This document shows positions 10,911 to 29,613 of a DNA stretch of 64,000 nt, one piece after another. Numbering within the stretch: the first letter of the stretch is position 1; each line of letters opens with the position of its first letter. The stretch is from a virus. Below the pieces are notes generated by a model. It saw only the letters and a list, made by a program, of their open reading frames with translations, had not been told where the DNA came from and did no database searches. The stretch is taken from positions 6,450 to 70,449 of the IMG/VR virus record IMGVR_UViG_3300010334_000001, one strand, 5' to 3'. The position numbers and the translations under genes were made by a program.

Positions 10911-11315
10911 ATGGACCGAGAAGTGATCCGGCGCGCATATGCCTGCTCCATCATGCTCGGAATCAGAGCCGGTGGCCATGCCGTGAACGTAAAAATTGAT
11001 GATTTCAGCGTTGATTACGAAACGGTCTCGTGGCGCTGTTTTGCCGTAGCCAAGGGGCTTCGGGCCGTCATGGCTGACCTTGATATTGCTGCCCCTGTCA
11101 CTCTTGATGAGCTGGCTGCGTGTGCGCGGGTTGAGGACCGCATGTGCGGTTCAGATCTTGAGGTCATTGAAAGCGATCTTGACGAGATGAAGAAGGCCGT
11201 GGGGGAGTCGATTGTGGATGCCCTGGCGGAACTGGTGGATAACCAGCCGTTATTGGAAATGGTTGCGGAGTTCCCCGTGAGCGACTTGATTGAGGAGATT
11301 TCATGGGCAGCCTAA
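10911..11315 (+). CDS. hypothetical acidic protein (start uncertain)
   Basis: ORF fills the gap and overlaps the next gene; alternative starts at 10890, 10953 and 10983. Confidence 0.5.
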   Translation: MDREVIRRAYACSIMLGIRAGGHAVNVKIDDFSVDYETVSWRCFAVAKGLRAVMADLDIAAPVTLDELAACARVEDRMCGSDLEVIESDLDEMKKAVGESIVDALAELVDNQPLLEMVAEFPVSDLIEEISWAA

Positions 11316-11734
11316 GTGACCTGAAGCGTTTCTTGATTTCTAAGGACGACACTGTTCCTGCGTATTTTCCTGCCGGTAAGGCGGCGACGGCTGCTGGTGT
11401 GGGTTCTGCTGGGCTTGGCGCTCTTTTGCTGCAGTCATCTAGACGACTTCCTGAGCGCACGGTAGACGCCCGTAATTCAGTACAAGGTGCTTACAACTAC
11501 CGCAGGGCCGTTTTAGCCAACACCACAGGTAAGAAAGCCACTCAGCGCGCGGCAATCAATGTGACGCAAGCGAAGAACTCTTTGATGCACGCCGACCGTC
11601 TTGTGGCCAGTGCACCTCATCGCCAAAAGCTGCTGCGTTCACGCGGGGCTCTTATGGCTTCAGCAGGCGCAGGGCTGGTGGGTTATGGCGCTTATGCCAA
11701 GAAGAAGAACCGCCAGGCGGGGTATCAGTCGTGA
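11303..11734 (+). CDS. basic Ala/Gly-rich head-region protein
   Basis: GAGGAG RBS; cationic, with AAGVGSAGLGALLL and AGAGLVGYGAY glycine-zipper segments. Confidence 0.6.
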   Translation: MGSLSDLKRFLISKDDTVPAYFPAGKAATAAGVGSAGLGALLLQSSRRLPERTVDARNSVQGAYNYRRAVLANTTGKKATQRAAINVTQAKNSLMHADRLVASAPHRQKLLRSRGALMASAGAGLVGYGAYAKKKNRQAGYQS

Positions 11735-12513
11735 GTCAGAACACTGCAGACAAGTATTCGTCGGCCGCGGCTGGTTCAGCAGTAGCGGGTGCTGCGGGTG
11801 GGTTTGCGTGGCGTAACGCTGCCAAGCGTAAGAATGCGGCTCGTGTGACAGTGGCAGAGCACGCCAATTGGCCGGCTGACCAGCGTTTGTCTGAGGTCAA
11901 TGCAGCGGCTGCCGCGGGAAAGACACGTGAGATCAGGAATCTGCGATCGGTTGCCTCTCGGCGTGAAACCCTAGCCGCCCGTACGCGCGCGCGACTTGTC
12001 CCCAAAGCAACCAAATCCAAGGTAGAGCGCTACACCGAGCCGGGCCGTTCAGGGTTCTATCCCGTGAATCGGCTTCGAGCTATGGACGCGTCTGCTGAAG
12101 GAAACAGGATGCAGGCGCGTGCGTTGGAGTTTGGCGTCAAGGCAAATCAGCGTGATTCCAGCAGGCTGGGTGCTCAAGCGGCTCATTCAAAGGCCAAGCA
12201 TGCGGCAGGGCTTAAAGACGTGGCTCGCAGTAGTCGAATGCTTCGTGCGGGACGAGTAGGGGCTCTCGCTGGTGCTGCAGGTGCTGTGGGGTTTGGTGTA
12301 GCCGCGGAGCGTTCCAAAGATCGTAAGAACAAGGCTCCAGTAGTGGAATTGAAGCGGATGCGTCCGAATGTGATTGATATGGACCGGTATCGGTCTGCTC
12401 GACCGTCTGCCGATGAACGTGGTTCCACGTTGGTTGATTTTCAGGGGTATCGCAAGCCGCTTTCGGCTAATGCCGGATCTACGTGGCTGAAGAACCACGG
12501 GAGGCAGTCGTGA
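11731..12513 (+). CDS. basic Ala/Arg-rich head-region protein
   Basis: GTGA coupling; AVAGAAGGFAW and VGALAGAAGAVGFGV segments. Confidence 0.6.
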   Translation: MSQNTADKYSSAAAGSAVAGAAGGFAWRNAAKRKNAARVTVAEHANWPADQRLSEVNAAAAAGKTREIRNLRSVASRRETLAARTRARLVPKATKSKVERYTEPGRSGFYPVNRLRAMDASAEGNRMQARALEFGVKANQRDSSRLGAQAAHSKAKHAAGLKDVARSSRMLRAGRVGALAGAAGAVGFGVAAERSKDRKNKAPVVELKRMRPNVIDMDRYRSARPSADERGSTLVDFQGYRKPLSANAGSTWLKNHGRQS

Positions 12514-14057
12514 GCATTGATTCATCAAGGCCCGTTGAGTACAACGGGTTTACTGACACGAATGGCGCTGATGATGAGTCGCTGAAGGAAGCCCTCAAGC
12601 TCGGCCCGTTTGTAGAGCTGGGTTCCACGGGTCTGCGTCGCGCCTCGGGCTATTTGGATGAGGAGTTCCTGCCTCAGTTGCGTGGCCGTAAGGCTGTGCA
12701 GATTTTCAAGGAGATGAGTGACAACGACCCGATGGTCGGTGCGCTTTTGTTCACCATCACCAATTTGATTCGTAACGTGGAATGGAATGTTAAGCCTGGT
12801 GGTAAGAGTGCTCAGGACGCTAAGGCTGCGGAGTTTCTTGAGTCGTGCCGCGATGACATGACCAACCCGTGGAGTGATTTCATTACAGAAATCCTCACCA
12901 TGTTGTCGTTTGGTTGGTCGTGGCACGAGATCGTGTATAAGCGCCGCGGCGGCATGTGGGACCGGGATCCTCGTCGCAGGTCCAAGCACAACGATGACCT
13001 CATTGGTTGGCGCAAAATGCCTATCCGCGCGCAGGAGACTTTGCTGCGATGGGTGTTTAATGATTCAGGCGACGTGCAGGCCATGATCCAGTTGGCCCCG
13101 CCTATTTACCGCATGACCACGCTTCCCATTGATCGAAGCCTGCTGTTTCGTTACCGCCATTACAAGGGCTCCCCTGAAGGCGTAAGTATGCTGCGTAACG
13201 CTTACCGGCCGTGGTACATGAAGAAGCGCCTTGAAGAGTTTGAGGCTGTGGGAGTGGAACGTGATCTTGCTGGCCTTCCGGTAGTGAAGGTTCCTGCGGA
13301 GATGCTGCGTGCGAAGGCGGGCACAGAGCAGGCGAAAGCTTTGGATGCGTTTAAGAAGATGGTTAAGAGCGTGCGCCGCGATGAGCAAGAGGGCGTTGTG
13401 TTCCCGATGGCGTATGACCAGGACACGAAGCAGCCGCTGTATTCGTTTGAGTTGATGGGTGGCGGTGGTGGCCGCCAGTTCAATACGGACGCGATCATTA
13501 AGCGTTATGAGGAGCGCATCCTCATGACGGTCCTTGCTGATTTCATTTTGGTTGGGCATCAGTCAGTTGGCTCCTACAGCCTGCACACGGACAAGACTGG
13601 CATCTTCCGTACGTCCTTGAACACGATCGCGAAGTCCATTGCAGACGTACTGAACCGCTACGCAGTTCCTCGCCTGTTTATGGTGAACGGCTGGAAGCCG
13701 GAAACGCTGCCTTATTTTGAGCCTACGGACGTGGATTCACCTGATATCGCGCAGTTGGCTGGGTTCATGCAGGCCATGGCCGGCACCGGTGTTACGTGGT
13801 TCCCGGATGGTGATTTGGAGAACTTCGTGCGTGAGGCCGCGCGTCTGCCCAAGCTTGATAAGGATCAGGTGGAGATGCGGCGCATGCTGCAGCTGCGGTC
13901 GGAAGCAACGGAGTTTGCGACGGCCAATACCGAGTATTTGATGGCCCAGAACAATCAAGCCATGGCTGCCGCTGGCCAAGACCCGATGCAGGCGCAGGGC
14001 GCTACGGGCCAGCAACAGGAATCTGGCAAAGACGAGAAGCCGGGGAGGTCGCAGTGA
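12510..14057 (+). CDS. portal protein (DUF935/Mu gp29-like)
   Basis: ELGSTGL, M.DNDPMVGALL, FGWSWHEIVYK, SPEG.SMLRNAYRPW..KK, VERDLAGLPV, GSYSL. Confidence 0.88.
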   Translation: MSIDSSRPVEYNGFTDTNGADDESLKEALKLGPFVELGSTGLRRASGYLDEEFLPQLRGRKAVQIFKEMSDNDPMVGALLFTITNLIRNVEWNVKPGGKSAQDAKAAEFLESCRDDMTNPWSDFITEILTMLSFGWSWHEIVYKRRGGMWDRDPRRRSKHNDDLIGWRKMPIRAQETLLRWVFNDSGDVQAMIQLAPPIYRMTTLPIDRSLLFRYRHYKGSPEGVSMLRNAYRPWYMKKRLEEFEAVGVERDLAGLPVVKVPAEMLRAKAGTEQAKALDAFKKMVKSVRRDEQEGVVFPMAYDQDTKQPLYSFELMGGGGGRQFNTDAIIKRYEERILMTVLADFILVGHQSVGSYSLHTDKTGIFRTSLNTIAKSIADVLNRYAVPRLFMVNGWKPETLPYFEPTDVDSPDIAQLAGFMQAMAGTGVTWFPDGDLENFVREAARLPKLDKDQVEMRRMLQLRSEATEFATANTEYLMAQNNQAMAAAGQDPMQAQGATGQQQESGKDEKPGRSQ

Positions 14058-14314
14058 CGTACCGCATTCATGAGGCGTCCCGTCGTGCTGGCGTGGGCAT
14101 GTGCGCTCTGGTGATGGAGGGTGATGAGTTCTCAGCCAATCAGTTGCTTCGCATGTACGTCACGGAGGCATCAGATCATGGGGTAGGGCTTCAAGACGCG
14201 CTTGTCATGTTGGCGAAATCAGCATGCGGTATTGCGGTTGGGCTTGCTGCTGACACGAACACAGGCACGGAGTGGTTTCATCGGGTGGGCTTGGGATTGG
14301 CGGCACGCTCATGA
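14054..14314 (+). CDS. hypothetical protein
   Basis: GGGGAGG RBS; coupled on both sides. Confidence 0.55.
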   Translation: MTYRIHEASRRAGVGMCALVMEGDEFSANQLLRMYVTEASDHGVGLQDALVMLAKSACGIAVGLAADTNTGTEWFHRVGLGLAARS

Positions 14315-16458
14315 GTAACGACCGTTTGCATGCTGCTGAGGCGACAGCTATTGGTGCAGGAATGATTGGTGGCGCGTCTGCTGCCAATTACGGCCTTGAC
14401 CGCATGTTGGAGCGTAAGAAGGTTAAAACGCCTCCTCGCGCCATTCTTCACGAGGCAAAAAGGCTTGTGCGCGGTGGCGGTAAGACTGCTGCGCATCCGC
14501 TTCATGTGCCTTATGTGGCGGGCAAGGTGGCTACGACGTCAGTGCGCGCGGTGGGTTTGCCGCTGGCAGCGTACGGGGCGTTCAATTTGGTTTCTCCTGG
14601 GGACAGGGTTGCGCGTGTCCGCCTTAAGGATGATGTGGTGAAGCCGACGGTGCGTACGGCTACGGGTTTTGAGCAGGCTAATCGGGCTAAGTCTCGGATC
14701 AAGACCAATCGCGAGGCCCGTAAGCGCACTCAGATGGTGAAGTCTGCTTTGACTGATAAGGAATACAACCAGTTACAACATCGCAAGACAACTGGTCGAA
14801 ACATCTCTCTTGCAGCAGGAACAATGGGGCTAACAGCGTTGAGTTTGCGCGCTCCTGAACTTGCTAGAGCCACGTCAAAGGTCCCTCGCGTTGGTAAGTT
14901 GAAGGTTTTGCAGAATCTTGCTCGACGAGAGAAGGGCGCCACACAAGCATCCAATGCGCTGGGTATTGCCGCAATTGGTACGGGAAGCGTCGGGTCATTC
15001 AACTATGCCGCGCAGCAGAAGCTTGAGCAGAAGAAGTTTGCCAAGGGACTGCCGAGAGTATTGAAAGTTCCCAACACAAAGAACCTAGATCGGCGGTTGC
15101 AGCATTATGCCCAAGTCCCGGCAAATGATTACGCACTTCGTCGTATTGAGTCGGTGCGCAACGGCAGGTCGATTGCGCGAAACATGAGCAGGAAGGGCAC
15201 TCCGAATATTGAAAGTCTGGAGCCGTTTGATCGCACAAAGTTGACGACAGCCCGACGATTCCGTACACAGTCGCGAAATGCTCTTGCTGGTAAGCCGTAT
15301 TCGGGTCCAGAGTCTGGGCAGTACAAACGATGGAATCCGGTTGCTAAGGCTCAACTGCCCTTGCCGGGTATGCCAGACAAGCCTTTGCGCGCTTTGCGTA
15401 CCGGTAAGCGAGTGTGGGTGAGTCCTGTGGGTCGTCAAGAGGTAGTGACTGATCACGGTCCTACCGTTAATGGGTTGCACAAGATCACCCGGCTTCATCC
15501 AAAGACAGGTGCGGAGACTGCTTATGTCACTGATCCTAAGAAGCTTGGGGCGTGGGTGAAGTTTGGTAAGTCTGCTGCGTGGGAGCGTGCTGCGGGTAAG
15601 AACCCTAAGGGTGGTTTGAACGAGAAGGGCCGGGAGTCGTATCACGCACAGACGGGCGGGACGCTGAAGGCTCCGGTGAAGTCGGGTGACAATCCGCGTC
15701 GGGCGTCGTTCTTGGCTCGGATGGGCAATATGCCTGGCCCAGAGTTCAAGCCCAATGGTGAACCGACACGTCTGTTGCTGTCTCTTCGTGCGTGGGGTGC
15801 GTCAAGTAAGGACGATGCTCGACGCAAGGCGAAGGCTATTTCTGGGCGTGATGGTGTGGGTAAGGCGTTGACGAGTGAGCAGAAGGCTCGTGCGAAGGCT
15901 CGTGCGCGTGCGGCTGGTCGGCCGTATCCGAATGCTTTTGACAACATGGTGGCTGGTGGCGCGCCGTGGCGTAAGGGCGTGCACAAGGCTGATGATCGGT
16001 TTTTGAGCAAGTATCGGGAGAGGATTTCTCCTGAGGCCGAAGCCGGATACAAGTATTTGAAGAGAGGCCGTAACCGGGCTACCGGTAATGCTGCACTAAA
16101 TGCTGCACTTACGCCCATTAATGCTCATGCCGCAGTTAACGGGTTCCGTCACGGTGGCAAGGCGGGTGTTGCGTGGGGCGCAACAGGTGCGGGTTTGACG
16201 GCGTTGACGGGCATGGGTGCGGTTACACAGGGACGTAAGGCTGTCCGTTGGGACAAGCGGATGGCCGGTATTGAATCAAAGGCTAAAGAGCGCGCTGCTG
16301 CTGGCGTGTACGGCCGTGGACGTGTGGTGGAAAAAGGGCTGATTCCGGTGATCAAGCCGCGTATCCCTTTGGCTGCACGTAAGCCGGCTATTAGATCGGG
16401 TCATGTCGCCACGAGCGTTCTTGGCCGCAAATACACCGTTCGTGGATCAGTGAGGTAG
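14311..16458 (+). CDS. large, highly basic modular head protein containing a DUF6321-like domain
   Basis: SAAWERAAGKNPKGGLNEKGR...KAPVKSGDNPRRASFLARMG...LSLRAWG module at 15571-15840; modules bounded by x-x-K-[SAG] motifs. Confidence 0.65.
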   Translation: MSNDRLHAAEATAIGAGMIGGASAANYGLDRMLERKKVKTPPRAILHEAKRLVRGGGKTAAHPLHVPYVAGKVATTSVRAVGLPLAAYGAFNLVSPGDRVARVRLKDDVVKPTVRTATGFEQANRAKSRIKTNREARKRTQMVKSALTDKEYNQLQHRKTTGRNISLAAGTMGLTALSLRAPELARATSKVPRVGKLKVLQNLARREKGATQASNALGIAAIGTGSVGSFNYAAQQKLEQKKFAKGLPRVLKVPNTKNLDRRLQHYAQVPANDYALRRIESVRNGRSIARNMSRKGTPNIESLEPFDRTKLTTARRFRTQSRNALAGKPYSGPESGQYKRWNPVAKAQLPLPGMPDKPLRALRTGKRVWVSPVGRQEVVTDHGPTVNGLHKITRLHPKTGAETAYVTDPKKLGAWVKFGKSAAWERAAGKNPKGGLNEKGRESYHAQTGGTLKAPVKSGDNPRRASFLARMGNMPGPEFKPNGEPTRLLLSLRAWGASSKDDARRKAKAISGRDGVGKALTSEQKARAKARARAAGRPYPNAFDNMVAGGAPWRKGVHKADDRFLSKYRERISPEAEAGYKYLKRGRNRATGNAALNAALTPINAHAAVNGFRHGGKAGVAWGATGAGLTALTGMGAVTQGRKAVRWDKRMAGIESKAKERAAAGVYGRGRVVEKGLIPVIKPRIPLAARKPAIRSGHVATSVLGRKYTVRGSVR

Positions 16459-16467: not shown

Positions 16468-19400
16468 ATGGGCGTGCTGAGTGTTGTGTCGAAGGTCTTC
16501 CGTGAGGATGAGGAGGCTGGTTCTGCGCTGGTGGAAATGGTGGTTTATGACTACCTGACTGATCTGGCAAAGCAGTATCGGCCCGTGTTTGACGCGGTTG
16601 TGGGCCCGTGGGCTTTGGATCGTGTGCAGGTTGCTAAGCGTCAGCTTGCTCGAGGTTACGTATCGAAAGCGGTACAGGGGACGTATCCGGATGAGGAAGT
16701 ACAGCAGGTTGCCCAGTGGCTTGCTGGTCTGGAGCAATTCCTTGTGGCTGCCGTGGAGCCAGAACCTGTGGGCAAGGCGTTTGAGTGGTGGACGTTCAAT
16801 GGAAACAGTCAGCAACGGTCAGTCAACCGAGATGCTCTGGGGCGCTTTTCTCAAAGCATTTCACAGGATCCTGTAGGACGTAGCACGGCTGGACTCAGCA
16901 CGGCGGATTTGCATCCTGAGATTCGCGGGCTTGTTGACACGGACGGAAGCATTAAACCGTCTAGCCTGTCGGGCACGGCCCAAGAGCAGGCTGACCAGGT
17001 CGAGCGCATTAAGTTTGCTCAGGCGCAGTGGCAGGAAGCCGAGCAGTTCATTGGTGAACTTCAGCGAGGTCTCCCTAAAAGTGTCCGCGATGAAGCTGAA
17101 GCGACGCTGTGGGTGCGTAATGGCAATGGTCTTCGAGCCATTCGTATTCCTTTGAAGGATGTCAAGAACGGCAAGATCCCCAATCTTGGAACGCAACGCC
17201 CGGATATCACGGAGACGCTTTCTCACGTTGATATTAATCCGGGGCCTGATGCTGGCCGGGAGACGATTCAGCAGATTGCTGCTTTGAACATGTTGGGGTC
17301 GACTGGGTCAAAGGCTGCTATTGGTGTGGCAATGACTGACCGCGCCAAGTGGAATGCTTTGGCGTCGTCTCTTAATGTGGATCCGAAGTCGCGTGACTCT
17401 AAGCTGACTCGATTCTTTAATCAAATGGCTGCAGGCGGCGGTGTTTTGACGGGTGTGCCTGGTGCTGGCCAGTACGGCCGTTTCGCGCAGTTTGTGGGCG
17501 AGATGGGTCCTGAGGCAGAGAAGGTGCTGGGCCCGTACGTGCAACGTGCGGCTTATCGTTACCGGGGCACGGAGACCAGTCCGGACAAGAATCTTGTGCG
17601 CATGTTCAACGGCGCGGAGATGGGACAGGTTGATGCTCTTGCTTCGGGACGTTTTAGCCGTGAGCAGGAAGCGGCCGCCGCTGCTGCAGTGAATGGTCCT
17701 CGCGCAGCGGAGAAGCTGGGTTCGCGTCTGATGATTGACGCTGTTCAGCGTCGCCAAGAGGGTTTGACCAGTGATTCGTTGAAGATGCAGGTGCGGGCGG
17801 ATATGGCTGGCGCGGAGCTTGCCCAGACGTTGCCGAAGGATCCGATCATTGCGCGCTTGTCTCAAAAGGCGGGCACGATTCTGCCAAGCCAAGGCATTTT
17901 GATTAACGCGGACGGAAAGATTGTTTCTCAGGCTGTGGGGTATGCCGATGACCATTATTTGCCTTTTGATTTGAAGAATCTTTCGGCTTTGCGTGGCGGT
18001 CAGTTTGTGCGTACTCGTCAGGCGGGTGGCCTTACGGGCGAGGACGTGTATTCGGCTGTGACCATGGGTGCTCGGATGGTGACGGTGGTGTCTCCTTCTG
18101 GCGTGTTCACGTTGGAGATGAGCCCTGATTTCCGTGGCGCTCGAGCGATGAGTGATAAGGCTCGTGGCATGTACGACCGGTACTTGAAGATTCTTGACGC
18201 GGTTGAAGGGTCAGGAATGTACCTTGAGGATATTCCGGCTGCTGACAAGTTGAAGATTGAGCAGGATGTTAGGTCGCTTCGCTTGGATAAGGACCGCACG
18301 AAGGAACTGATTGACGAGCGGTTGAATGAGGCTCGTGAGAACGCTCAGCGCCTTAGTCCGGAAGAGATTGAGGGCATTGAGAGTGACCTTCTGGCCGATC
18401 GCTATAACGGTGCGCCGCGCGCGCGACTGCAGGGTGCTGATGCGCGACGTTTCGCTGATGAATTGGCTGAGGCTGTTGATGTTGCTCAGTCTACGAAGGC
18501 AAACAAACTGCGCCTGAATGGTCAGGGGTATGCGGTGGCGTTGCAGACTTTGCAACAGCAGTATCCGTATTTCATTCGCCGTGCTGGGTACGAGACTCTT
18601 AATGATTTTGCGTCCAAGCAGGGTCTGCAGGGGGTTAAGGGTCGCCAGTTTGCGTCTGATCAGGGTTATGTGCGCCCAGGTGGTTTGAAGGCGAACTCAA
18701 CGCAAGAGGGTTTTTATAAGCCTGCTGGTCCGCGTTCATTCAAGAGCGGTGATTCCGAATCGGTTGGTACCGGATCCGGTACCGTTCCTGCTTCGGCTGC
18801 TGCGGCAATTGCTGCTGAATCCAAGCCTAAATCGGAAAGCGCTTCGGATGCAGTTGCTCCTTTGAGCAGCCCTTTGCAGCAGCGGTTGTCTGACCGTGCG
18901 GAAGAGCTGTCGAAGGTGAGGGATAAGGCTGCGACGGATTTGGCTCACGAGTTCGGCAAAATTCCCATGGGCCTGAAGATAGACCCTAATCGGATACCGG
19001 GTAATGCCTTGACAATTATTGATGCCCTGTCAGGTACTAATACCGAGATCGTGGACTGGCTGGTGTCGCAGCCCGACAGCGATTTGAAAGACGCCATGGC
19101 TAATCCAAAGGGTTTTTTGAAATTGGTAGCGGCATTGTCGGATAGGGACGCTGTCACCTCGGTTCTTGCCAGACGCCTTTCTGAGGGCCAGGGGGTCCAA
19201 GACTTCTTTGCGGGCGGAAATGATCTTGGCGGAGCAAGAAATTACGACGACGCAGTTGAGTGGACTGTCCGCACAGCTCGTCTCGCGGCTGACGCTCAGT
19301 TGATGCAGCAGCCTTTCTCTGGCTCTCCGATTGCGGACAAGAACTCGTGGCGTGCTCCTACGGTGGATCCCATTGTGGCTGGCATTTCTGACAAGGACCA

Positions 19401-19923
19401 GTTGCTGGCTTATGCCTCAAGTGAGCCAGAGGTGTGGAATCGGGCTGTTGAACTTGCTACTGCGGGTGATGATTACGACTCTTTGACTGGTGTGGCTCAG
19501 AAGGCGCGGGAGCAATTGGCGTCTCTTGACCGTCTTGCTGACACTAAGAAGCGCGTGGAAGCCGCTCTCAATGACAAAGATCGCAAAGTCCTCCCTAAGG
19601 CGTCGGATTTTGCTGCTGAGGTTGCGCCGGCTTTGGGCAAGCCTGTGGATCAAGTCACTCTGGAAGACATTAGGAGCGTTAATCCTGATGATTTGAAGAA
19701 ACCTATTCTTGTTGCGTGGCAGTTAGCTGCGATGGGTCGGGCTCTGCAGTTTTTGGGAGAAGGTGAGGTGTTCCCAAAAGAGTCGGGCCAGCGTTGGCTG
19801 GTCAAAAAGTCTCAGAGTCGAGTCAGAGTTCTGAAGGCGAGCGACCCGTTGAGCCTGGCAGTGCAGGAGAGGGTTCGCAAGGGGATTCCGTTCGTCCCGA
19901 GCCGGAGACCTTTGACGAAATAA
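16468..19923 (+). CDS. 1151-aa head-region (probably internal/ejected) protein with a degenerate JAB/MPN-like domain
   Basis: Long ORF between portal and protease; PVGKA followed by an RDALGRF motif; LRGGQFVRTRQAGGLTGEDV...MVTVVSPSGVFTL. Confidence 0.65.
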   Translation: MGVLSVVSKVFREDEEAGSALVEMVVYDYLTDLAKQYRPVFDAVVGPWALDRVQVAKRQLARGYVSKAVQGTYPDEEVQQVAQWLAGLEQFLVAAVEPEPVGKAFEWWTFNGNSQQRSVNRDALGRFSQSISQDPVGRSTAGLSTADLHPEIRGLVDTDGSIKPSSLSGTAQEQADQVERIKFAQAQWQEAEQFIGELQRGLPKSVRDEAEATLWVRNGNGLRAIRIPLKDVKNGKIPNLGTQRPDITETLSHVDINPGPDAGRETIQQIAALNMLGSTGSKAAIGVAMTDRAKWNALASSLNVDPKSRDSKLTRFFNQMAAGGGVLTGVPGAGQYGRFAQFVGEMGPEAEKVLGPYVQRAAYRYRGTETSPDKNLVRMFNGAEMGQVDALASGRFSREQEAAAAAAVNGPRAAEKLGSRLMIDAVQRRQEGLTSDSLKMQVRADMAGAELAQTLPKDPIIARLSQKAGTILPSQGILINADGKIVSQAVGYADDHYLPFDLKNLSALRGGQFVRTRQAGGLTGEDVYSAVTMGARMVTVVSPSGVFTLEMSPDFRGARAMSDKARGMYDRYLKILDAVEGSGMYLEDIPAADKLKIEQDVRSLRLDKDRTKELIDERLNEARENAQRLSPEEIEGIESDLLADRYNGAPRARLQGADARRFADELAEAVDVAQSTKANKLRLNGQGYAVALQTLQQQYPYFIRRAGYETLNDFASKQGLQGVKGRQFASDQGYVRPGGLKANSTQEGFYKPAGPRSFKSGDSESVGTGSGTVPASAAAAIAAESKPKSESASDAVAPLSSPLQQRLSDRAEELSKVRDKAATDLAHEFGKIPMGLKIDPNRIPGNALTIIDALSGTNTEIVDWLVSQPDSDLKDAMANPKGFLKLVAALSDRDAVTSVLARRLSEGQGVQDFFAGGNDLGGARNYDDAVEWTVRTARLAADAQLMQQPFSGSPIADKNSWRAPTVDPIVAGISDKDQLLAYASSEPEVWNRAVELATAGDDYDSLTGVAQKAREQLASLDRLADTKKRVEAALNDKDRKVLPKASDFAAEVAPALGKPVDQVTLEDIRSVNPDDLKKPILVAWQLAAMGRALQFLGEGEVFPKESGQRWLVKKSQSRVRVLKASDPLSLAVQERVRKGIPFVPSRRPLTK
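19773..19803 (+). promoter_or_regulatory. programmed -1 ribosomal frameshift signal
   Basis: In-frame C CCA AAA heptamer, 6-nt spacer, hairpin GGCCAGC-GTTG-GCTGGTC. Confidence 0.75.
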
Positions 19924-20873: not shown

Positions 20874-23434
20874 ACCGTTGGTGGACTGACCCAGAGAAGT
20901 CCCGATGGGCTCTTGGGCTAGTGGGCGATACGGACGTCAGCATGGGCGTGGGTACGGCCGTGTTGGCGTATCACGGGCTTGCGCTGGAGCATTTGAGGCC
21001 GCTAGCAGAGAGCACGCTTGTTGACGGCGGTGAGTTGATTAGCCGCTTAGACAGGGTTGATTTGACTCCCGTTGCTACTGCGGTGGCAAAGGCTGTGGCT
21101 CCGGTGATGGGGGAGGCGTCTGCTTCGTACGGTCACATGTGGGCGCAGGACTTGCATGATAGGTCTTTGGGTACGAGCGTGGATTTGTTTACGTCGTTGA
21201 CGCGTTCAGGGATGGCGTTCCCGCATGCGATTGACCGGGTTATTGCGGTTCATGGGATTCCGTCGGAGCGTTTGGGTCCTGTGGCTAAGCATTTGCGTGA
21301 GCCTCGGGTTACTCCTCGAGTTCTTGATGATTACGCGGATCGCGCGCTGATGGAGTATGCGGCGTATCGGGGCAAGTTAGAGTCGAGTGACGTCACTATT
21401 TCTAAGTCTGGGGCTTTTCAAGAACGGGAACATCCTCGGGATTCGTCAGGGAAGTTCAGTGATAAGCCGTCAGCTTCTGGCGGCAAGACACCCGATAAGG
21501 CGTTTGAGGATCGTCAGGATCGCCGTGGCCGTCGCTTGAGGCGCATGAAGCGTCTGGTGGTTCAGCAGAATCAGATTGAGCAAGCTCAGCGTGAGGCTGA
21601 GAAGCTGAAGGCTTCTGCTGGTCAGAAGATGAAGCAGGTGGTGGCCCCTGTTAAGCCGAAGTTGAAGCAGCGGCCTGTGAACGCGTTGATGACGGGTTCG
21701 CCTTTTGGTGATGCGATACGCCGGCAGGCAATGGGCATGCAGCAGGCTCGTCGTCAGGCCGTGAATGAGGGAATCATTGTTGAGGAGATTCCGTTTGAGC
21801 ATACGCCTGCGTCAGACGAAGAGGTGTATGAGCAGTTGACGTCTCAGCGCTCGCAACGACTACCTGAGCATTCGATGCTGGGGGAGCGCTTTTATATTCT
21901 TACAAACGATGAGTTTGAAATGCTTGCTAGTTCAGGTGTGGACGAGTGGTCTGCGGCGGGTTTCAAAGCGCTGACAGGAAATGGCTTATACGGGTATACG
22001 GCCCAAGATGCTTTGGCTGATCTTCAAAGTCAAGTAAATGACAATTTGGCTTCTGCGGATGATTTTGTGATTCTCCGCGCCGATGGCCGTATTCCGTTGA
22101 ATTTTGGCGAGAGCCTTCATGAAGATGAGGGCAGCGGTCAGATTATTCCTGATTCTGCCATGTTGTCTTTAGGGGACGAACTCAATTTCTTTGATTACGA
22201 TGACCGTTTTCATTTGGAGCAGTACACCAACAATCCTTCATGGGGCGAAAAAGGATTACGCCCTGTCAGAGTTGTGGATATCCAGCTTGTGAATCAGAAA
22301 ATGTTTCCTTTGACAAAGCAAGACAAGGTAACCCCGCTGCGAAGGTATTCACCCAGCGACGTGGACGAAGACGGTTACCCGGGTATCTCTAAGGCCGACG
22401 CGTTCCTTGAGCGGGAACATCCACGCGATTCTGAGGGGCGTTTTAAAGATAAGGACGTTCAGCCGAAGCCTCCGGTGAATCAGGCTTTTTTGGATCGTCA
22501 GGATCGCCGGCGTAGGCGCATGAACCGCCAGGTGAAAGTGTTGGCTCAGTTAGAGCAGATTCAGCACATGCGTGATGTTCAGGCGGCTCAAGAGGCCCAA
22601 GCGCGTGAGGCAGAAAGTCGACAGGCGGCAAGGAAACTGTCAGCGTTGAAGCCTCAGGCAATGGAACGTCCGAAGAATGCGCTTGCTGCTCGCGACGCGG
22701 TGATGCAGCGTATGCGGGCTTTGGGTGCTGCTCAGGTGGCTGACGTACCAGAGGGCGCATGGGAAAGTTTGGGGGCTCTCACGTTTGATTCTGAAGATTT
22801 CTGGACTTTTTACGAGATTACTGGCGGCGATGTTGTCGGTAACAAGGTCGATGATTCTTTTGACATGACCAGCATGGCAAGCATTATGAGTGACCACGAC
22901 GACACCGAACTGTTAGCAAATAAGAACGTAACGTCTGCTAGTGACTCATTGAACAGAATTCTTCGTATTGCCCAAGTCAGCGACAACAGAATTACTAAAG
23001 TAATAAATCCTGTCAACGGGCGAAACGCGTTGTTGAGCCTTGAGGAAGCAGAAGCCGTCGCCGAAAAGGCGGCTATGTTGCTGGAAAGCAAGGATGATCG
23101 AGGAAGTCTTCAACTTCCTTTCCTTGAATACGTGAGCGAAGGCTCAAATAAAGACAATCCGGTGATGAGGGCGCGAGTATTGACGTACCCCAACGAGCCC
23201 GCCGGCTACCAAATTCTTGGCGACCCACAAGCGCTTGCCGCGCTCCAACGAGGTGACAGGCACTTACTGGATTTTGAGGATCAGAGCGTTATTGGGGCTC
23301 GAGATCTTGCTGTTCGCACAGGAAACCTTGACGAATCAGGCATCGGTTTGGAAGAAATTCCTGATCTTCCGATTGGCGTGGTGCTTGTGAAAATGAAGGA
23401 TAATGCTTCACAAAGGAGGAAAAGTGAACTCTGA
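20870..23434 (+). CDS. 854-aa minor head protein with a degenerate MuF-like N-terminus and a duplicated EHPRD module
   Basis: ISK[SA]..F.EREHPRDS.G.F.DK...AF.DRQDRR.RR occurs twice; lies directly upstream of the protease. Confidence 0.6.
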   Translation: MNRWWTDPEKSRWALGLVGDTDVSMGVGTAVLAYHGLALEHLRPLAESTLVDGGELISRLDRVDLTPVATAVAKAVAPVMGEASASYGHMWAQDLHDRSLGTSVDLFTSLTRSGMAFPHAIDRVIAVHGIPSERLGPVAKHLREPRVTPRVLDDYADRALMEYAAYRGKLESSDVTISKSGAFQEREHPRDSSGKFSDKPSASGGKTPDKAFEDRQDRRGRRLRRMKRLVVQQNQIEQAQREAEKLKASAGQKMKQVVAPVKPKLKQRPVNALMTGSPFGDAIRRQAMGMQQARRQAVNEGIIVEEIPFEHTPASDEEVYEQLTSQRSQRLPEHSMLGERFYILTNDEFEMLASSGVDEWSAAGFKALTGNGLYGYTAQDALADLQSQVNDNLASADDFVILRADGRIPLNFGESLHEDEGSGQIIPDSAMLSLGDELNFFDYDDRFHLEQYTNNPSWGEKGLRPVRVVDIQLVNQKMFPLTKQDKVTPLRRYSPSDVDEDGYPGISKADAFLEREHPRDSEGRFKDKDVQPKPPVNQAFLDRQDRRRRRMNRQVKVLAQLEQIQHMRDVQAAQEAQAREAESRQAARKLSALKPQAMERPKNALAARDAVMQRMRALGAAQVADVPEGAWESLGALTFDSEDFWTFYEITGGDVVGNKVDDSFDMTSMASIMSDHDDTELLANKNVTSASDSLNRILRIAQVSDNRITKVINPVNGRNALLSLEEAEAVAEKAAMLLESKDDRGSLQLPFLEYVSEGSNKDNPVMRARVLTYPNEPAGYQILGDPQALAALQRGDRHLLDFEDQSVIGARDLAVRTGNLDESGIGLEEIPDLPIGVVLVKMKDNASQRRKSEL

Positions 23435-24107
23435 GGTAGCAGTTGACGCGCTCATGAACGTCGATCCCGGCTTTACCCAGCTGGTCGAGACGCTCTTTGG
23501 TGATGTCGTGGACTCCCGCGAAGCCTGGGCGTACCTGTACGGGCCCAATGACGTGGTCAAGATGAGCCCCGATATGTCCTCCGTTCACGTTCCCGGATCA
23601 ATGGGCAAGGCCAAGCGCGGCCGGTTTGTGAAGAAGACCGTGGCCATGGACGTTCGTGGTATTTCGTCTCCGATGGCTAAGTCTGATCGCCCCATGGTGA
23701 CGTGGGACGTGGAATTTTCCAAGGTTGATGAGGACAAGCACGAGGTTTTTGGCTGGGCTTCTGTCGTGGAGATGGACGGCAAGCCGGTCGTGGATCGTCA
23801 GGGCGACTGGATCACGCCTGACGAGATTGAGAAGGCCGCGTACAAGTATGTTCTGGATTCCCGTAAGGGTGGCCATCAACACAAGCGCGAGGGCGACGCA
23901 GCTTTCCATGCCTCAAACATGATTGAGTCAATCGTTTTTACTCCGGAAAAGATCGCCAAGATGGGTCTTCCTGAGGATTTCCCTGTCGGTTGGTGGGTTG
24001 GTTACAAGGTTCATGACGGCGAGACGTGGAACAAGGTCAAGTCTGGAGAAGTGACGGGTTTTTCCATTCATGGCTCGGGTAAGCGTGTCCAGGTAGGGCA
24101 GGCGTGA
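23424..24107 (+). CDS. XkdF-like prohead serine protease (core)
   Basis: VFGWASV...VVDRQGDWI..DEIEKAAY.Y, GHQH, GWWVGYKV.D..TW.KVKSGE.TGFSI.G; AGGAGG RBS. Confidence 0.88.
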   Translation: MNSEVAVDALMNVDPGFTQLVETLFGDVVDSREAWAYLYGPNDVVKMSPDMSSVHVPGSMGKAKRGRFVKKTVAMDVRGISSPMAKSDRPMVTWDVEFSKVDEDKHEVFGWASVVEMDGKPVVDRQGDWITPDEIEKAAYKYVLDSRKGGHQHKREGDAAFHASNMIESIVFTPEKIAKMGLPEDFPVGWWVGYKVHDGETWNKVKSGEVTGFSIHGSGKRVQVGQA

Positions 24108-24108: not shown

Positions 24109-24393
24109 ATGTTTCCTAATGGCGACGCGGTGAGCGTGGGTAAGGCGGATCAGGTGAAGGACCTGCCTATTCCTGAATGGGCGCGTACGTCGTTTTCTAC
24201 AAGTCATCCTGCTGTGGCTAACCCACTGGACATGTACGCAGGCGCCCGCATGATGGCGTTTGGCGGAAACAATATGCGGGGAAAGATCAACTGGCCTTGG
24301 CGGCGTAGCCGCATGGTGCGTGGTGCGCAACAGTACGTGCAAGGCCGGGCAACGGTGTATTCACCCATTGGTGAGGGTAGGGGATCGTTGTGA
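24109..24393 (+). CDS. hypothetical basic protein
   Basis: ORF coupled to the next gene; SVGKA motif near the N-terminus. Confidence 0.5.
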   Translation: MFPNGDAVSVGKADQVKDLPIPEWARTSFSTSHPAVANPLDMYAGARMMAFGGNNMRGKINWPWRRSRMVRGAQQYVQGRATVYSPIGEGRGSL

Positions 24394-25499
24394 GTTCTCA
24401 ACCGGCCAAGGGCCAGTCCAAGGGTGAGTTGAAGACTGCTCGTACGTTGAACACTGTCGCGATTATTGGCGCGACCCATCCGATGTACACGGCTGCGCGT
24501 AATTTGGCATCGCAGGCTCCGGAGGGTGTTAAGGCGGCTGCTGGCCGGTTTGTTCCTAAGAAGGCCGTGTCGGCTGTTCGCGGTGGAGTTGATCGGGTGG
24601 TGACTCGTAATCCTGGTACGAAGGCTGCGGCGAAGTTTGCGGCTAAGCACGGGAAAGTTGCTGGCGCTGCTGCCGCGACGGGGTGGTTGGGTTTTCATGG
24701 TGCTGAGCTGGCGGGTGACGTGTTGGGCCGGCGTAGTATTAATTCTCAGTTGAGGCAGAAGCAGGCTCAGGAGGCTGGCGTGAAAAAGGCGATGACCAAT
24801 AACCACAAGCGCATGATTGCTGGTGGTGCTTCTAGTGCAGCGCTGGGTGCCGGTGTGGGTTACTTCCTCGCTCCGGTGTTTGAGACGGATCGGGCTAATC
24901 GTGTCAAGGTTGCTCGGACAATGGGCCGGGGAGCGTTTGGTGCTAAGAACATGAAGGCGTTTGAGCGGGCTGAGCGGGCAGCGTTGAGTGCTGAGATGAA
25001 GTTTGCGCCGCACAAGGCAGCAGCAACGATGTTGAAGAAGGTTCCTTCGCGTGCGCGATGGGTTGCTGGAGGCGCAGCTGCTATGGGCGCTTTTGGCGCT
25101 AAGTCAGCCGTTGCTAAGTCGATTGAGCAGTCGTTTATGTCCAAGGCGGAGACCGCTCCGGTGACAGGTCACGGGACTAGTATCGAGAAGCGATACTACG
25201 ACTCTGAAGCGGACCGTCAGCGCCGTATTGGTATGGCTACGGGCTTGCTGGGTGGTACGTCAATCGTGACCGGTGCTGCTGCCGCTAATGGTGTAAAAGC
25301 CGAGCGTGGATTGAGTGAGGCCGCTGGCGGAGCACGGCGTGCTGGTGTGCAGGCCGGTTACCTGATTCCTAAGGGTGCGAATGCAAAGAAGGTTTTGGGC
25401 CGCAAGGCTGGTTTGGCAGCGGTTGCTGCCGCCTCGGGTGTGGGTGCGGTGGCGTCATATAAGCGCGGTATTTCTCGCCGTAATCAAACTTGGCAGTAG
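24390..25499 (+). CDS. basic Ala/Gly-rich modular head protein
   Basis: Several glycine-zipper-like segments; VKKA, VAKS and MSKA motifs. Confidence 0.6.
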   Translation: MSSQPAKGQSKGELKTARTLNTVAIIGATHPMYTAARNLASQAPEGVKAAAGRFVPKKAVSAVRGGVDRVVTRNPGTKAAAKFAAKHGKVAGAAAATGWLGFHGAELAGDVLGRRSINSQLRQKQAQEAGVKKAMTNNHKRMIAGGASSAALGAGVGYFLAPVFETDRANRVKVARTMGRGAFGAKNMKAFERAERAALSAEMKFAPHKAAATMLKKVPSRARWVAGGAAAMGAFGAKSAVAKSIEQSFMSKAETAPVTGHGTSIEKRYYDSEADRQRRIGMATGLLGGTSIVTGAAAANGVKAERGLSEAAGGARRAGVQAGYLIPKGANAKKVLGRKAGLAAVAAASGVGAVASYKRGISRRNQTWQ

Positions 25500-25537: not shown

Positions 25538-25631
25538 TACTGCGTTAGGTGATCAAAATGCCTAATTTCGTAGAAAATGACGCTCAACTTTTCTGCGGTG
25601 AAGCATTCTGATGCCCCATGATGGGAACATC

Positions 25632-26606
25632 ATGAGTAGGCCAGTAAGCAAGTTGATCGACCTCGACATCGACGAGGTCTCCGTTGTTGACCGCGGAGCA
25701 AACCAGCATTCGCTTATTGCCTTCTCCAAGAGCCTCCAATCCGGGGGCGACGATATGTCGGAGGAACCCATGGCTGATGACGTTCTCGTGTTTGACGAGG
25801 CAGGTCAGGAAGTCGCTGTTGACGAGCTGGAGCACGGTGACACCGTGTTTGACTCTGAAGGCAACGAGTACGTTTTTGTTGAGGACGGCGACGACGAGAA
25901 CGTCGAGAAGGCCGTTCGCTGGGGAAGCATCGCTGGCGCCATGAAGGCCGGACGCAAGGGCTTTAATCGCGAAATGGCTTTTGGCTCCCAGAACCCGATG
26001 AAGGCAGGCGTTCGCGCTGGCCGTTCAGCATTCCGTTCAGCACCGGGCAGCCTTACTGCCGCTGGCGCTGGTCTTGGTGCTGGCGCGGTTGGCGCAGGTT
26101 ACGCCGCTGACAAGATGAAAAAGTCCATGGGCGACTCCATCATTGAAGAGCTCAGCAAGGCCGTGACCGACGCTGATCGCGACGAAGTCATTGCCAAGGC
26201 CCTCAACGAGGTTGAGGTCTACAAGGCTCAGGCCGCCGAGGCACTCGCGTGGGCCGAGCAGGAACACGACACTCGCGTCACCGAGGCGTTCATCTCCAAG
26301 GCCGCTGAGTACAACCTTCCGGTTTCTCCCGAGGTGCTTGGCCCGATCCTGAAGGCCGTTGCCGAGGTCCTCACGGAGGAAGAGCTGGATGTCATCGACG
26401 AGATCTTCAACGCTGTTGGAGACGCTCTGTACGAGGAGATCGGCTACATCGGCGAGTCCAGCAACAGCTCGGTCATGGACCAGGTTGACGCGATGGCAAA
26501 CGAATACGTGGGTAAGTCCGACTTCTCCCACGCACAGATGACCACGGCAATGTTCTCGGAGAACCCCTCCGCGTACGACGCCTACATTTCAGAGATGGGA
26601 CGGTGA
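25632..26606 (+). CDS. scaffolding protein carrying the protease EVSVVD..AN strand at its N-terminus
   Basis: LIDLDIDEVSVVDRGANQH; acidic helical body; ends with a tail typical of scaffolds (NPSAYDAY); precedes the cement and capsid genes. Confidence 0.8.
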   Translation: MSRPVSKLIDLDIDEVSVVDRGANQHSLIAFSKSLQSGGDDMSEEPMADDVLVFDEAGQEVAVDELEHGDTVFDSEGNEYVFVEDGDDENVEKAVRWGSIAGAMKAGRKGFNREMAFGSQNPMKAGVRAGRSAFRSAPGSLTAAGAGLGAGAVGAGYAADKMKKSMGDSIIEELSKAVTDADRDEVIAKALNEVEVYKAQAAEALAWAEQEHDTRVTEAFISKAAEYNLPVSPEVLGPILKAVAEVLTEEELDVIDEIFNAVGDALYEEIGYIGESSNSSVMDQVDAMANEYVGKSDFSHAQMTTAMFSENPSAYDAYISEMGR

Positions 26607-26610: not shown

Positions 26611-27024
26611 ATGGCTTTTGACGAGAGCCTACGGTCGATCAGCCTGAACGCTGATTCTTCCATTGCCACGTACACGGGCGTTCCGGGCCTTCCTGGCTCC
26701 GCTGACCCGAACTACGGCAAGCAGTACCGGTTTGTGAAGGTTACCGGCGTTCAGACCGCTGGCCTGTGCACCGCCAACACTGACCATTCGATCGGCGTGC
26801 TTCAGTCGAAGCCGCAGGTTGTGAATCAGGCAGCCACTGTCGCTATCCGTGGCGTTTCTTTCGTAATGGCGGGTGCAGCGGTTACTGCCGGCGCTCGTGT
26901 CACGACTGACGCTCAGGGTCGCGCCATTACGGTCCCGGGTTCGGGCACCCCGATTACCTACGGGATCGCCCTCACGTCGACGGATGCGGCAGGGGAGCTT
27001 GTCTCCGTCCTGCTCAAGAGCTGA
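26611..27024 (+). CDS. capsid cement/decoration protein (DUF2190-like)
   Basis: YRFVK...IGVLQ.KP...A.VAIRGVS.V.AGAAVTAGARVTTDAQGRA. Confidence 0.75.
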   Translation: MAFDESLRSISLNADSSIATYTGVPGLPGSADPNYGKQYRFVKVTGVQTAGLCTANTDHSIGVLQSKPQVVNQAATVAIRGVSFVMAGAAVTAGARVTTDAQGRAITVPGSGTPITYGIALTSTDAAGELVSVLLKS

Positions 27025-28023: not shown

Positions 28024-28025
28024 CA

Positions 28026-28766: not shown

Positions 28767-28993
28767 CTACTGACATGTTTGAGCTTGCTGATCCGGCTCT
28801 TGTGAAGCGCCGTAAGCCTCGTGAGGCTAAGGCTGCTCCTGTGGTTGCGGGACCTTCGTATGTGGCTCGTAAGACTCTTCGTTTGAATGGTCGGTTGATT
28901 AAGCCGGGGACTGTGGTTCCTGAGGCTGGGTCGTGGCCTCGTGTGGAGTCGTGGGTTCGTGCTGGCTATATCGATTTGGTGAAGGAGTCGTAG
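28763..28993 (+). CDS. hypothetical virion protein
   Basis: GGAGG RBS; LRLNGRLIKPGTVV..W...GYI resembles the N-terminus of the 28026 gene. Confidence 0.5.
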   Translation: MTTDMFELADPALVKRRKPREAKAAPVVAGPSYVARKTLRLNGRLIKPGTVVPEAGSWPRVESWVRAGYIDLVKES

Positions 28994-28995
28994 TT

Positions 28996-29613
28996 ATGTG
29001 TGCTTCGTGTAAGTGTGGCTGTAAGCCGGGTAAGCCTGCTAAGGGTTGCGATTGCCAGTGCAAGGAGTGTCGTGCGGCTCGCGAATCGGTGGGGAAGTCG
29101 TTTTCGGATTTGTCTTTGATTGCTAAGGCGTCATGGAAAGAGGCAGTAAATCTTTCCAAGGCCATGAAGATGAAGAGCCGTGAAAACTATGTTGCGAATG
29201 CTGGGGCGCTTTCTGGTGCTATCGGTGGTTCGGTACTGGGTGCTCACGCGACTCGTCGTCTACGCCGTCGTCCCGCGGTAATGCTCGGTACTACCGTTGC
29301 AGGGAGCCTTGCTGGGGCTGTTGCTGGTACTGCTGCTACTGGTCCTCTTCGTCGCAAAATGGCGAATAAGAAGGCTGCTCAAATGAATGTGGGTAAGTCT
29401 CTTTCTGACCTTGGTGTTGTGGCGAAGGCTTCCCCGTTTGGTTCTATGGGTAATGCTTTTAAGGGCGTTGGCTCGTTGAAGCCGGTGGGTGGCGACATGA
29501 AGCGTCGCATGACGAACAATGCGGCTGTGGCGTCGGTGCAGCGTAAGCGCCGGATGAATGATTCTGTGAGCCCGTTTAAGGACATGTCGAATCCGCTTCG
29601 GCGAATAATGTAG
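28996..29613 (+). CDS. basic protein with a metallothionein-like Cys-rich N-terminus
   Basis: MCASCKCGCKPGKPAKGCDCQCKEC; repeated VGKS.SDL...AKAS; AAGGAG RBS. Confidence 0.6.
   Translation: MCASCKCGCKPGKPAKGCDCQCKECRAARESVGKSFSDLSLIAKASWKEAVNLSKAMKMKSRENYVANAGALSGAIGGSVLGAHATRRLRRRPAVMLGTTVAGSLAGAVAGTAATGPLRRKMANKKAAQMNVGKSLSDLGVVAKASPFGSMGNAFKGVGSLKPVGGDMKRRMTNNAAVASVQRKRRMNDSVSPFKDMSNPLRRIM

Follow-up and report, generated by a model that had tools for sequence, protein, structure and literature searches.

How much of a phage head is cut by the prohead protease of the phage? The question is raised by a 64,000-nucleotide stretch of viral DNA (the window), which covers bases 6450-70449 of the 70,449-bp IMG/VR record IMGVR_UViG_3300010334_000001, a virus record with direct terminal repeats. 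The non-shell genes of its head cluster, among them an XkdF-type prohead protease, repeatedly carry a short string composed of a hydrophobic residue, any residue, lysine and a small residue. A first reading made from the letters alone (the sequence-only reading) took these strings for cleavage sites, and proposed that more than 10 kb of precursors are cut inside the prohead into many peptides that would be delivered at infection. Are the strings more frequent than composition predicts? Are they conserved where a protease would use them? Which proteins would be cut? The analysis described here points to a narrower answer. The motif is probably the recognition site of the XkdF prohead protease, serving chiefly the removal of the scaffold and, to a limited extent, the processing of a MuF-derived modular protein, with no 10-kb polyprotein.

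The phage is temperate and siphovirus-type, with a tail tube gene (31341), a 2112-residue tape measure and a tyrosine integrase (51430-52590, minus strand). Genes are called here by their first position in the window, and all head-cluster genes given with coordinates below lie on the plus strand. The cluster runs from 11303 and 11731 through the portal (12483), an 86-residue open reading frame (ORF), 14311, 16468 (1151 residues) and an AAA+ ATPase (19794) to 20870 (854 residues), the protease (23403), 24109 (94 residues), 24390 (369 residues) and the scaffold (25611, 331 residues), and ends with the cement protein (26611), the E-type major capsid protein (MCP, 27043), an Fn3 protein and 28996.

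The lysine motif within the window

The motif was counted in a loose form, [VILFM]-x-K-[SAG], with the expectation taken from shuffling within each protein. All 31 occurrences listed by the sequence-only reading are present and its gene coordinates are right; the eight genes that it named hold 40 sites, these 31 included. But is the number larger than such proteins would yield anyway? The 12 non-shell head-cluster genes have 42 sites against 20.5 expected, an observed-to-expected ratio (O/E) of 2.04, and 33 against 19.5 (1.69) when the scaffold is left out. The remaining 55 ORFs of the window have 52 against 35.7 (1.46), as real proteins generally exceed the shuffled expectation. Head cluster and rest differ at p = 0.064 in a conditional binomial test, and at p = 0.28 with the scaffold removed. 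The difference in density, 0.87 against 0.36 sites per 100 residues, is mostly composition, K, A, G and S being abundant in the head-cluster proteins. The sole individual outlier is the scaffold (25611-26606), with nine sites against 1.23 expected, involving nine of its 15 lysines, a number that none of 1000 shuffles reaches. Thus the enrichment over composition claimed for the whole cluster holds for the scaffold and not for the cluster as such, and the pattern within the window is mostly composition plus this one outlier.

Could composition and chance then be the whole explanation, K-, A-, G- and S-rich proteins simply yielding many such strings? They explain most of the raw gap in density between the cluster and the rest, for which O/E differs only as 2.04 against 1.46, as well as the sites in 14311, 16468 and 24390, and for the large basic proteins this explanation stands. 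As an account of the motif in general it is hardly credible: composition-corrected counts refute it for the scaffold and for the junction sites described below, where the strict motif precedes 24 of 30 junctions, and it leaves unexplained that the shell proteins of the family are depleted in the motif.

Probable removal of the scaffold

What do related phages show? A query with the MCP gave 121 pattern hits in IMG/VR, 117 of which encode a relative, and the best 80 of these 117 loci were taken, with MCPs 61-85% identical. Most have the protease, the scaffold and the cement protein, many have a 16468-like gene and about 15 have AAA and 20870-like genes, while among these 80 loci the genes 14311, 11303 and 11731 recur only in one 96% twin. 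The putative scaffolding protein (25611..26606) is acidic (pI 4.2), is encoded directly upstream of the cement and capsid genes and belongs to no Pfam family. Its sites lie after K40, K100, K171, K183, K196, K205, K230, K248 and K302. Its 53 distinct complete homologues, 32-72% identical to the window copy, hold 415 sites against 50.0 expected, a count that repeats inherited sites since the homologues are kin; each of them lies beyond all 500 of its shuffles, and the scaffolds of relatives have 6-10 sites each.

The residues around the scaffold lysines follow a pattern. With Lys as P1 in protease notation, P3 is I, V, L or F in 71%, P2 is A, S or G in 64% and P1' is A or S in 57%, which gives a refined motif, [IVLF]-[ASG]-K-[AS]. 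It occurs in the scaffolds 382 times against 14.9 expected; across 60 homologues the loose motif stands 8-fold and the refined one 25-fold above expectation. When the P1 residue is varied, K reaches 8.33, H comes next at 2.24 and R is at 0.57. Acidic neighbours are strongly avoided (h-x-K-[DE] 0.17, [DE]-x-K-[SAG] 0.10). In the alignment Lys is kept at K40, K183, K196 and K302 in 53-54 of 54 sequences and at K100 in 46 of the 47 that occupy the position, with one Arg overall, and the columns of non-motif lysines vary freely. Half of all scaffold lysines stand in this motif context.

Is this specific to the scaffold? Distinct ORFs of the relatives were compared class by class with an analytic expectation for the loose motif. 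The scaffold class stands at 457/54.7 (O/E 8.35), followed by the classes of 24109 (5.3), the protease (2.36), 28996 (2.27), 20870 (1.65) and 24390 (1.46). The classes of 14311 (1.18), 16468 (1.10) and the AAA protein (0.82) are close to or below the 501 unclassified ORFs (1.06-1.13), and the two shell proteins fall far below, with 24/63.8 (0.38) for the MCP and 9/30.5 (0.30) for the cement protein. With the refined motif, for which the background is 1.5-1.6, the 20870 class has 31 against 8.0 and the 28996 class an O/E of 3.0, and the shell is again depleted (MCP 2 against 14.8, or 0.14; cement 3 against 11.2, or 0.27). Among 1044 distinct ORFs, none outside the scaffolds falls below p = 2e-3. 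The cement protein (26611-27024) and the MCP (27043-28023) of the window are the shell proteins concerned, and none of the 17 lysines of the latter stands in the motif.

Taken together, the large and positionally conserved excess in the scaffolds suggests that a Lys motif with hydrophobic P3 and small P1' behaves like a protease site, as the sequence-only reading had supposed. The XkdF-type protease would recognise [IVLF]-[ASG]-K followed by [AS], probably cutting after the Lys. Its main substrate would be the scaffold, cut at nine sites; the capsid and cement proteins of this family avoid the motif. Cutting at all nine sites is predicted to leave fragments of 9-71 residues, and these pieces would thus be small enough to exit the maturing capsid. 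There is also a caution about method here: a motif that is striking by eye in K/A/G/S-rich proteins was mostly composition, and only the family-wide comparison isolated the real signal.

The XkdF protease and other phages

The protease gene (23403..24107) encodes an XkdF-type domain at residues 104-229 (PF14550, Peptidase_S78_2, E 2.3e-22; 79.8 bits against a cut-off of 24, covering profile positions 4-125 of 126). It is preceded by an N-terminal extension of about 100 residues ending in MAK↓S (residues 91-94, nt 23673-23684; the arrow marks the proposed cut). This pre-domain site fits the motif in 17 of the 32 homologues that occupy the position. The excess of the protease family as a whole was considered as a set of self-cleavage sites and rejected, since most of it stems from positions within the fold of the catalytic domain. 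Literature searches on XkdF specificity brought up no study of it among the results listed, and those on PF14550 gave only irrelevant papers.

Is the scaffold excess seen in other phages with this protease? It is, in the scaffold-position proteins of Arthrobacter phage Laroye (gp24, 8 sites against 1.48), of the gut phage MT835491 (413 residues, 13 against 2.39) and of Rhodobacter phage RcZahn (gp18, 12 against 3.06), and in the protease-scaffold fusion of Bacillus phage vB_BtS_B83 (gp09, 15 against 2.09); in the B83 and RcZahn proteins K is the top P1 residue. MT835491 is a simpler relative with portal, MuF, protease, scaffold, cement and MCP and without the large extra genes.

How would the protease find its substrate? 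In the window the two are on separate genes, and the scaffold N-terminus (25611-25730) reads 'IDEVSxVDRxANQ...FSK↓S'. By eye only, an 'EVSxVDxxAN...K[S]' signature is shared with the B83 fusion (L091 4402-4500), where it lies in cis with the XkdF domain. Structure prediction of the protease domain together with scaffold residues 1-60 gave a median score of 0.57, the best of three controls being 0.00. In the calibration of this score, 58 of 80 solved complexes and 2 of 110 mismatches came up to the mark, with scores of 0.60 or less in only 7 of the 80 solved complexes and in both mismatches. The partner has a predicted local distance difference test score (pLDDT) of at least 46 and the runs agree in at least 57% of contacts. 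The predicted complex thus lends weak support to an encounter of the protease domain with the scaffold N-terminus.

The sequence-only reading had placed this protease type in SPO1/Twort-like phages, and this proved wrong at the family level: none of the three phages K, SPO1 and A511 has a match to PF14550 and all three match the HK97-type PF04586, and a tblastn search with the protease against named phages returned 40 records, none of them Staphylococcus, Listeria or SPO1-like. Felix O1 was set aside as a parallel, as the protease of that phage is of the S49 type.

Single sites and the limits of the proposed processing

Are other head proteins cut too? A few single sites are conserved. The small basic protein 24109 (24109..24393) has VGK↓A at residues 10-13, and its seven homologues hold the refined motif 7 times against 0.4 expected; its N-terminus is a candidate 12-residue propeptide. 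In 28996 (28996..29613), an alignment of 12 homologues shows a Cys-rich leader, MCxSCxCxCKxGxxxKGCxCxCKxCxxAR, then SV[GES]K↓[SG] and then a variable basic Gly/Ala-rich tail; the homologues back the start that the sequence-only reading had chosen, the Met of 'MCASCKC'. The leader itself (28996-29085) has 29 conserved residues, eight of them Cys, with homologues in loci L005, L013, L014, L017, L024-L026, L030, L042, L043 and L054, and may bind metal. The window copy also has an internal duplicate of VGKS-x-SDL-x(2)-[IV]AKAS. These positions suggest a single maturation cut each, before the catalytic domain of the protease, at residue 12 of 24109 and after the Cys-rich leader of 28996.

The large basic proteins are different. 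The 14311 protein (14311..16458) is very basic, with a net charge of +93, Gly/Ala-rich uncharged segments and a DUF6321 domain (PF19846, E 1.9e-21), a domain on which no paper was found. It has seven motifs against 3.77 expected (p 0.06, the level of composition), all seven shared only with the 96% twin. It had been proposed that recognisable units begin right after such a motif. This fits both repeats containing EHPRD in 20870, with the Lys before the first kept in 16 of 16 sequences, and only loosely the DUF6321 domain, where FGKS ends eight residues before the Pfam start and is present in two of nine aligned relatives, the window and its twin. The small basic proteins 11303 (11303-11734) and 11731 (11731-12513), for which no family was found, have no motif and one motif, respectively, and the basic Gly/Ala-rich protein between protease and scaffold (24390..25499) has four against 2.6 expected. 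No useful match came from Pfam searches at E<=10 with the scaffold, the N-domain of 20870, its EHPRD segments, 11303, 11731 and 24390.

Five of the proteins of the cluster (the two of 11303-12513, and those of 14311-16458, 24390-25499 and 28996-29613) are very basic, with pI 10.4-11.5 and net charges of +17 to +93. In them K/R-rich stretches alternate with uncharged Gly/Ala-rich hydrophobic segments, and except for DUF6321 they match no family. They may be internal DNA-binding or membrane-active proteins.

Can the original model in full, with nearly all non-shell proteins of the cluster (>10 kb) diced at every motif and the peptides packaged and delivered at infection, be upheld? The listed motifs do exist, the cluster exceeds its shuffled expectation, and the five basic proteins with their Gly/Ala-rich hydrophobic segments look as DNA-binding or membrane-active internal proteins would. 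The junction described below also ties 16468 and 20870 to polyvalent proteins, which one study proposes to be packaged and injected (PMC5512222). Against this, with the scaffold taken out the cluster does not significantly exceed the rest of the window, the families of 14311 and 16468 are at background (1.18 and 1.10 against 1.06-1.13), the 14311 sites are found only in the twin, the AAA protein, 11303 and 11731 carry 0, 0 and 1 sites, and no ORF of the 1044 is individually enriched outside the scaffolds. We regard the full model as decidedly unlikely. Dicing of a polyprotein is not what the data on 11303, 11731, 14311, 24390 and the greater part of 16468 support; what is left of the idea outside the scaffold is a small number of conserved single sites.

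Modular proteins and their junctions

Among the remaining proteins is 20870 (20870..23434), which sits in the slot that holds MuF in relatives. It consists of a helical N-domain (residues 1-172) and two units; in each unit a linker with h-S-K-[SA] leads through a junction motif into a long basic helix and then a globular domain. Junction 1 (ISK↓S ... FQEREHPRDSSGKF) spans 21398..21457 (residues 177-196) and junction 2 (ISK↓A ... FLEREHPRDSEGRF) spans 22385..22444 (residues 506-525). K179 and K508 lie 11 residues upstream of R190 and R519, and all 16 sequences of the 20870 type agree at K179, R190, G194, F196, R519, G523 and F525. Five homologues came from a collection of 5.8 billion proteins and further relatives from the IMG/VR loci; all five full-length homologues have Lys and then S or A upstream of both junctions. 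A protein atlas search with 20870 gave no usable match, and a word-indexed homologue search with the second EHPRD repeat (residues 496-540) returned only the query, from four candidates.

Is 20870 a MuF protein? No Pfam family matches it at E<=0.01, Phage_Mu_F (PF04233) included. The proteins that occupy its slot in relatives match PF04233 in 10 of 10 scanned, and hhalign aligns the 20870 N-domain with them at 97.5% probability (E 7.4e-12; residues 25-186 with 33-223 of 310). Their invariant C258, C261, H288 and C291-R-C293 lie outside the aligned region. What follows the N-domain is variable: similarity to seven of 12 non-twin homologues stops at residues 199-228, which is 3-32 residues past junction 1. 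A change of modules near the motif across relatives is suggested for 20870, and not for 14311, where the sites are not conserved.

The AlphaFold2 (AF2) model of 20870, with a mean pLDDT of 65.7, has a confident helical N-domain and two globular modules after this carrier domain. K179 and K508 fall in segments with pLDDT below 50, and a long basic helix follows each junction. What could the modules be? An alpha/beta domain (residues 331-478, 21860..22303; modelled confidently at 335-487) has a weak likeness to ADP-ribosyltransferases (ARTs). The best Foldseek match in the PDB has E 0.054, with C3/iota-like ARTs in most of the top 48 rows. VIA-align gives XopAI at Z 6.0 (99 residues, 3.8 A) and Vis, SpvB and iota Ia at Z 5.0; its hits span Z 4.4-6.0 over about 100 residues, values that the tool rates as middling. 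The E-D-E before an invariant Gly is E/Q-variable among the five homologues. The model thus gives a weak indication that the domain is ART-like in fold. The second globular module has no fold lead.

The large family-wide protein between the portal and the MuF slot, 16468 (16468..19923, homologues in 24 loci), has one such junction, VGK↓AFEWW...NRDALGRF, at residues 101-127 (nt 16768-16848), and outside it the motif is at background frequency. Its core, residues 330-760, is modelled with a pLDDT of 77.6. This core has no PDB sequence match and no Foldseek PDB match at E<=1e-3, and its best VIA hit has Z 5.5; deaminase-like and JAB-like rows recur at noise level. The conserved core (17455-18747) contains an invariant DDHYLPF...GG..R.R..GG.T.ED.

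It seems reasonable to propose that 16468 and 20870 are also cut once ahead of each of their W/F-x-E-x-x-HPR[DG]-x-x-GRF junctions, within a flexible linker. The 20870 protein would be a MuF-derived carrier, with an N-terminal domain for incorporation into the head and exchangeable modules, one of them ART-like in fold, and the junction would be the place where modules are swapped and perhaps released.

The junction beyond this family

Is the junction confined to these phages? In distant relatives it comes directly after the HPNCRC end of genuine MuF proteins. Across 30 instances the strict Lys motif stands upstream in 24 and h-x-K in 29. A profile of these 30 junctions, searched against 1.84 billion representative proteins, matched 703 at E<=1e-3 and 109 at <=1e-10. 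The proteins that match best are 1400-7334 residues long and fit the profile in up to 19 stretches. The 447 strict cores counted in 148 of the best matches have a median of three per protein, a maximum of 16 and a median spacing of 285 residues, and in 50 of 139 no more than 60 residues separate the first core from the N-terminus. As a consensus the cores give [WF]-[DF]-E-x-x-[HQ]-P-R-[DG]-x-x-G-[RK]-[FW]. Five giants that bear the junction were scanned for domains and yielded ART-PolyVal, Kinase-PolyVal, ADP-ribosyltransferase, zeta-toxin, MuF, 2'-5' RNA ligase, GNAT and FtsK, with the cores lying between domains; they are polyvalent proteins in the sense of Iyer 2017 (PMC5512222). The junction motif is not mentioned in the main text of that paper, nor in the main text of Jamet 2017 (PMC5576092), and the supplements of either may show it.

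One may tentatively go further and ask whether W/F-x-E-x-x-HPR[D/G]-x-x-G[R/K][F/W] is a general punctuation mark of packaged MuF and polyvalent proteins, set at the beginning of every module, a place for docking of modules in the head, for proteolytic release and for recombination. In XkdF phages it might be coupled to an upstream Lys site, so that modules are freed in the capsid before injection. We hold this to be a possibility with the odds somewhat against it. In a separate observation, the protease of one relative (L038 5315-7753) is 812 residues long; its long N-terminal extension contains a junction-like 'REYVRDHAGRF' and segments resembling Gly zippers, and its C-terminal tail is Q/P-rich.

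Cleavage site or structural feature?

The excess in the scaffolds could also have another origin. The motif might be a structural or binding feature of the scaffold, such as a repeated helical contact with the capsid protein or a place where the protease docks, and the sites found singly in other proteins would be there by coincidence, as parts of conserved modules. Such a feature would agree with IEKA being conserved inside the folded XkdF domain, with the 3-3.7-fold enrichment of neighbouring registers, with the location of several sites in helical, conserved scaffold segments, and with the conservation of the HPRD-GRF junction far beyond the families that bear the Lys. It is harder to reconcile with the depletion of h-x-R-[SAG] and the single Arg in all the Lys columns, which would be unusual for a purely electrostatic or helical role, and with the concentration of half the scaffold lysines in one context. 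The excess also recurs in scaffolds that cannot otherwise be aligned (Laroye, MT835491, B83, RcZahn), the shell proteins of the family avoid the motif, and the linkers that hold the sites ahead of the junctions are predicted to be disordered. We consider a structural role alone unlikely, though less so than wholesale dicing.

Recognition by the XkdF protease is the reading that we lean to, inferred from sequence statistics, and several observations weigh against it. Within the scaffolds, the first site has S, N, R or C as P1', an enrichment of 3.7-fold is found for the reversed pattern too (for the most part at the motif sites themselves), and the family-wide counts come from kin. In the protease, IEKA144 (33 of 37) and a VxKS column are conserved inside the folded domain; they are probably structural, which means that the pattern can be a structural helix feature. 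The aligned site of 24109 is K in five of seven homologues and Q or R in the other two. In other phages, the haloarchaeal HHTV-2 protease-scaffold has no excess (1 against 1.09), and the MCPs of B83, RcZahn, HHTV-2, Laroye and MT835491 are not depleted. Lastly, in the top 40 giant junction-bearing proteins the Lys motif stands upstream of only 45 of 206 cores; Lys and junction are therefore separable, and the Lys is a feature of the family of the window and not of every junction.

Comparison with known systems

How does this compare with known head proteases? The T4 protease gp21 processes scaffold or core proteins and internal head proteins at a short motif. The proposed system resembles T4 gp21, phiKZ gp175 and SPN3US gp245 in having a motif of 3-4 residues that is present many times in core or scaffold propeptides and once near the N-terminus elsewhere. 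The prohead proteases of giant phages use a short motif to cut a large number of head proteins, and the propeptides are reported to be cleaved repeatedly and to leave the head (PMC10052503). It differs from the T4 and giant-phage proteases in that the enzyme is of the XkdF class (PF14550), P1 is Lys and not Glu, the genome is a 70-kb siphovirus-type one, and the main target would be a separate scaffold and not a capsid delta domain or an inner body.

The HK97-type proteases (Peptidase_S78) found in HK97 and in SPO1/Twort-like phages are said to cleave the capsid precursor between Lys and Ser, a rule for which our literature searches brought up no statement on Twort-like phages. The proposed P1 Lys and P1' Ser or Ala are alike; unlike in those systems, the capsid protein of the window has neither an N-terminal delta domain nor the motif. 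In CdiA, VENN marks the pre-toxin junction at which a conserved carrier gives way to exchangeable C-terminal modules. The junction of 20870 is likewise a short conserved boundary soon after which homology breaks; it differs in sequence, in its phage-head setting and in its many copies per protein.

MuF polymorphic toxins and polyvalent proteins (PMC5576092, PMC5512222) share with 20870 an N-terminal MuF-type domain followed by variable C-terminal modules, and in them the junction of the window recurs between MuF, ART, kinase, zeta-toxin, GNAT and RNA-ligase domains. Unlike the MuF proteins, 20870 retains only the part upstream of the Pfam core, without the CxxC...HPNCRC end. Is there any sign that such proteins travel in the head? 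Packaging and injection of polyvalent proteins have been proposed (PMC5512222), and a preprint reports that phi24B gp47 was detected in the virion proteome.

Other features of the locus

The portal (12483..14057) is of the Mu type (PF06074, E 1.9e-33; phrog_113, E 3.3e-85), and the closest named portals, of Arthrobacter phages, are about 44% identical; a megablast search with the head cluster against named phages found no match. The AAA+ ATPase (19794..20873; AAA plus AAA_lid_6, PF00004 E 2.8e-19) has no motif against 1.16 expected. It lies between 16468 and the MuF-slot protein, with the same placement in about 11 relatives, and from its listed TTG start it would share 130 nt with 16468, so that the true start is probably further downstream. 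A ferritin/Dps-like protein (10373-10816; PF00210, E 4.5e-22) is encoded immediately before the head cluster. No terminase gene adjoins the portal (8781-14057) and the 70-kb record has no Terminase_6N match, other terminase families not having been searched.

Elsewhere in the window, 3-2817 and 4060-6527 encode long proteins rich in Gly, together with two of a collagen-like (G-x-y)n type in which GPTG/GDTG repeats number in the hundreds, followed by a glycosyltransferase/TPR protein (6543-7652); these are probably fibres and their modification. The minus strand carries a DnaE-type Pol III alpha with PHP, NTPase, finger and HHH domains (59236-61881) and a HIRAN-domain protein (61952-63355).

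Implications

What remains of the head-borne cargo? The idea of a modular cargo survives in a narrower form, in 20870 and in the junction motif that it has in common with polyvalent proteins; the modules may be packaged and delivered. The junction motif gives a simple means of dividing giant polyvalent and MuF proteins into modules from their sequence, and it prompts one to ask how they are processed and if their modules are exchanged at a fixed seam. If the proposed recognition of the Lys motif is true, it would be the first specificity rule for the widespread and uncharacterised XkdF class of prohead proteases. The processed head proteins of these phages would then be predictable from sequence, and the predictions would be testable in cultured phages of Arthrobacter, Bacillus and Rhodobacter.

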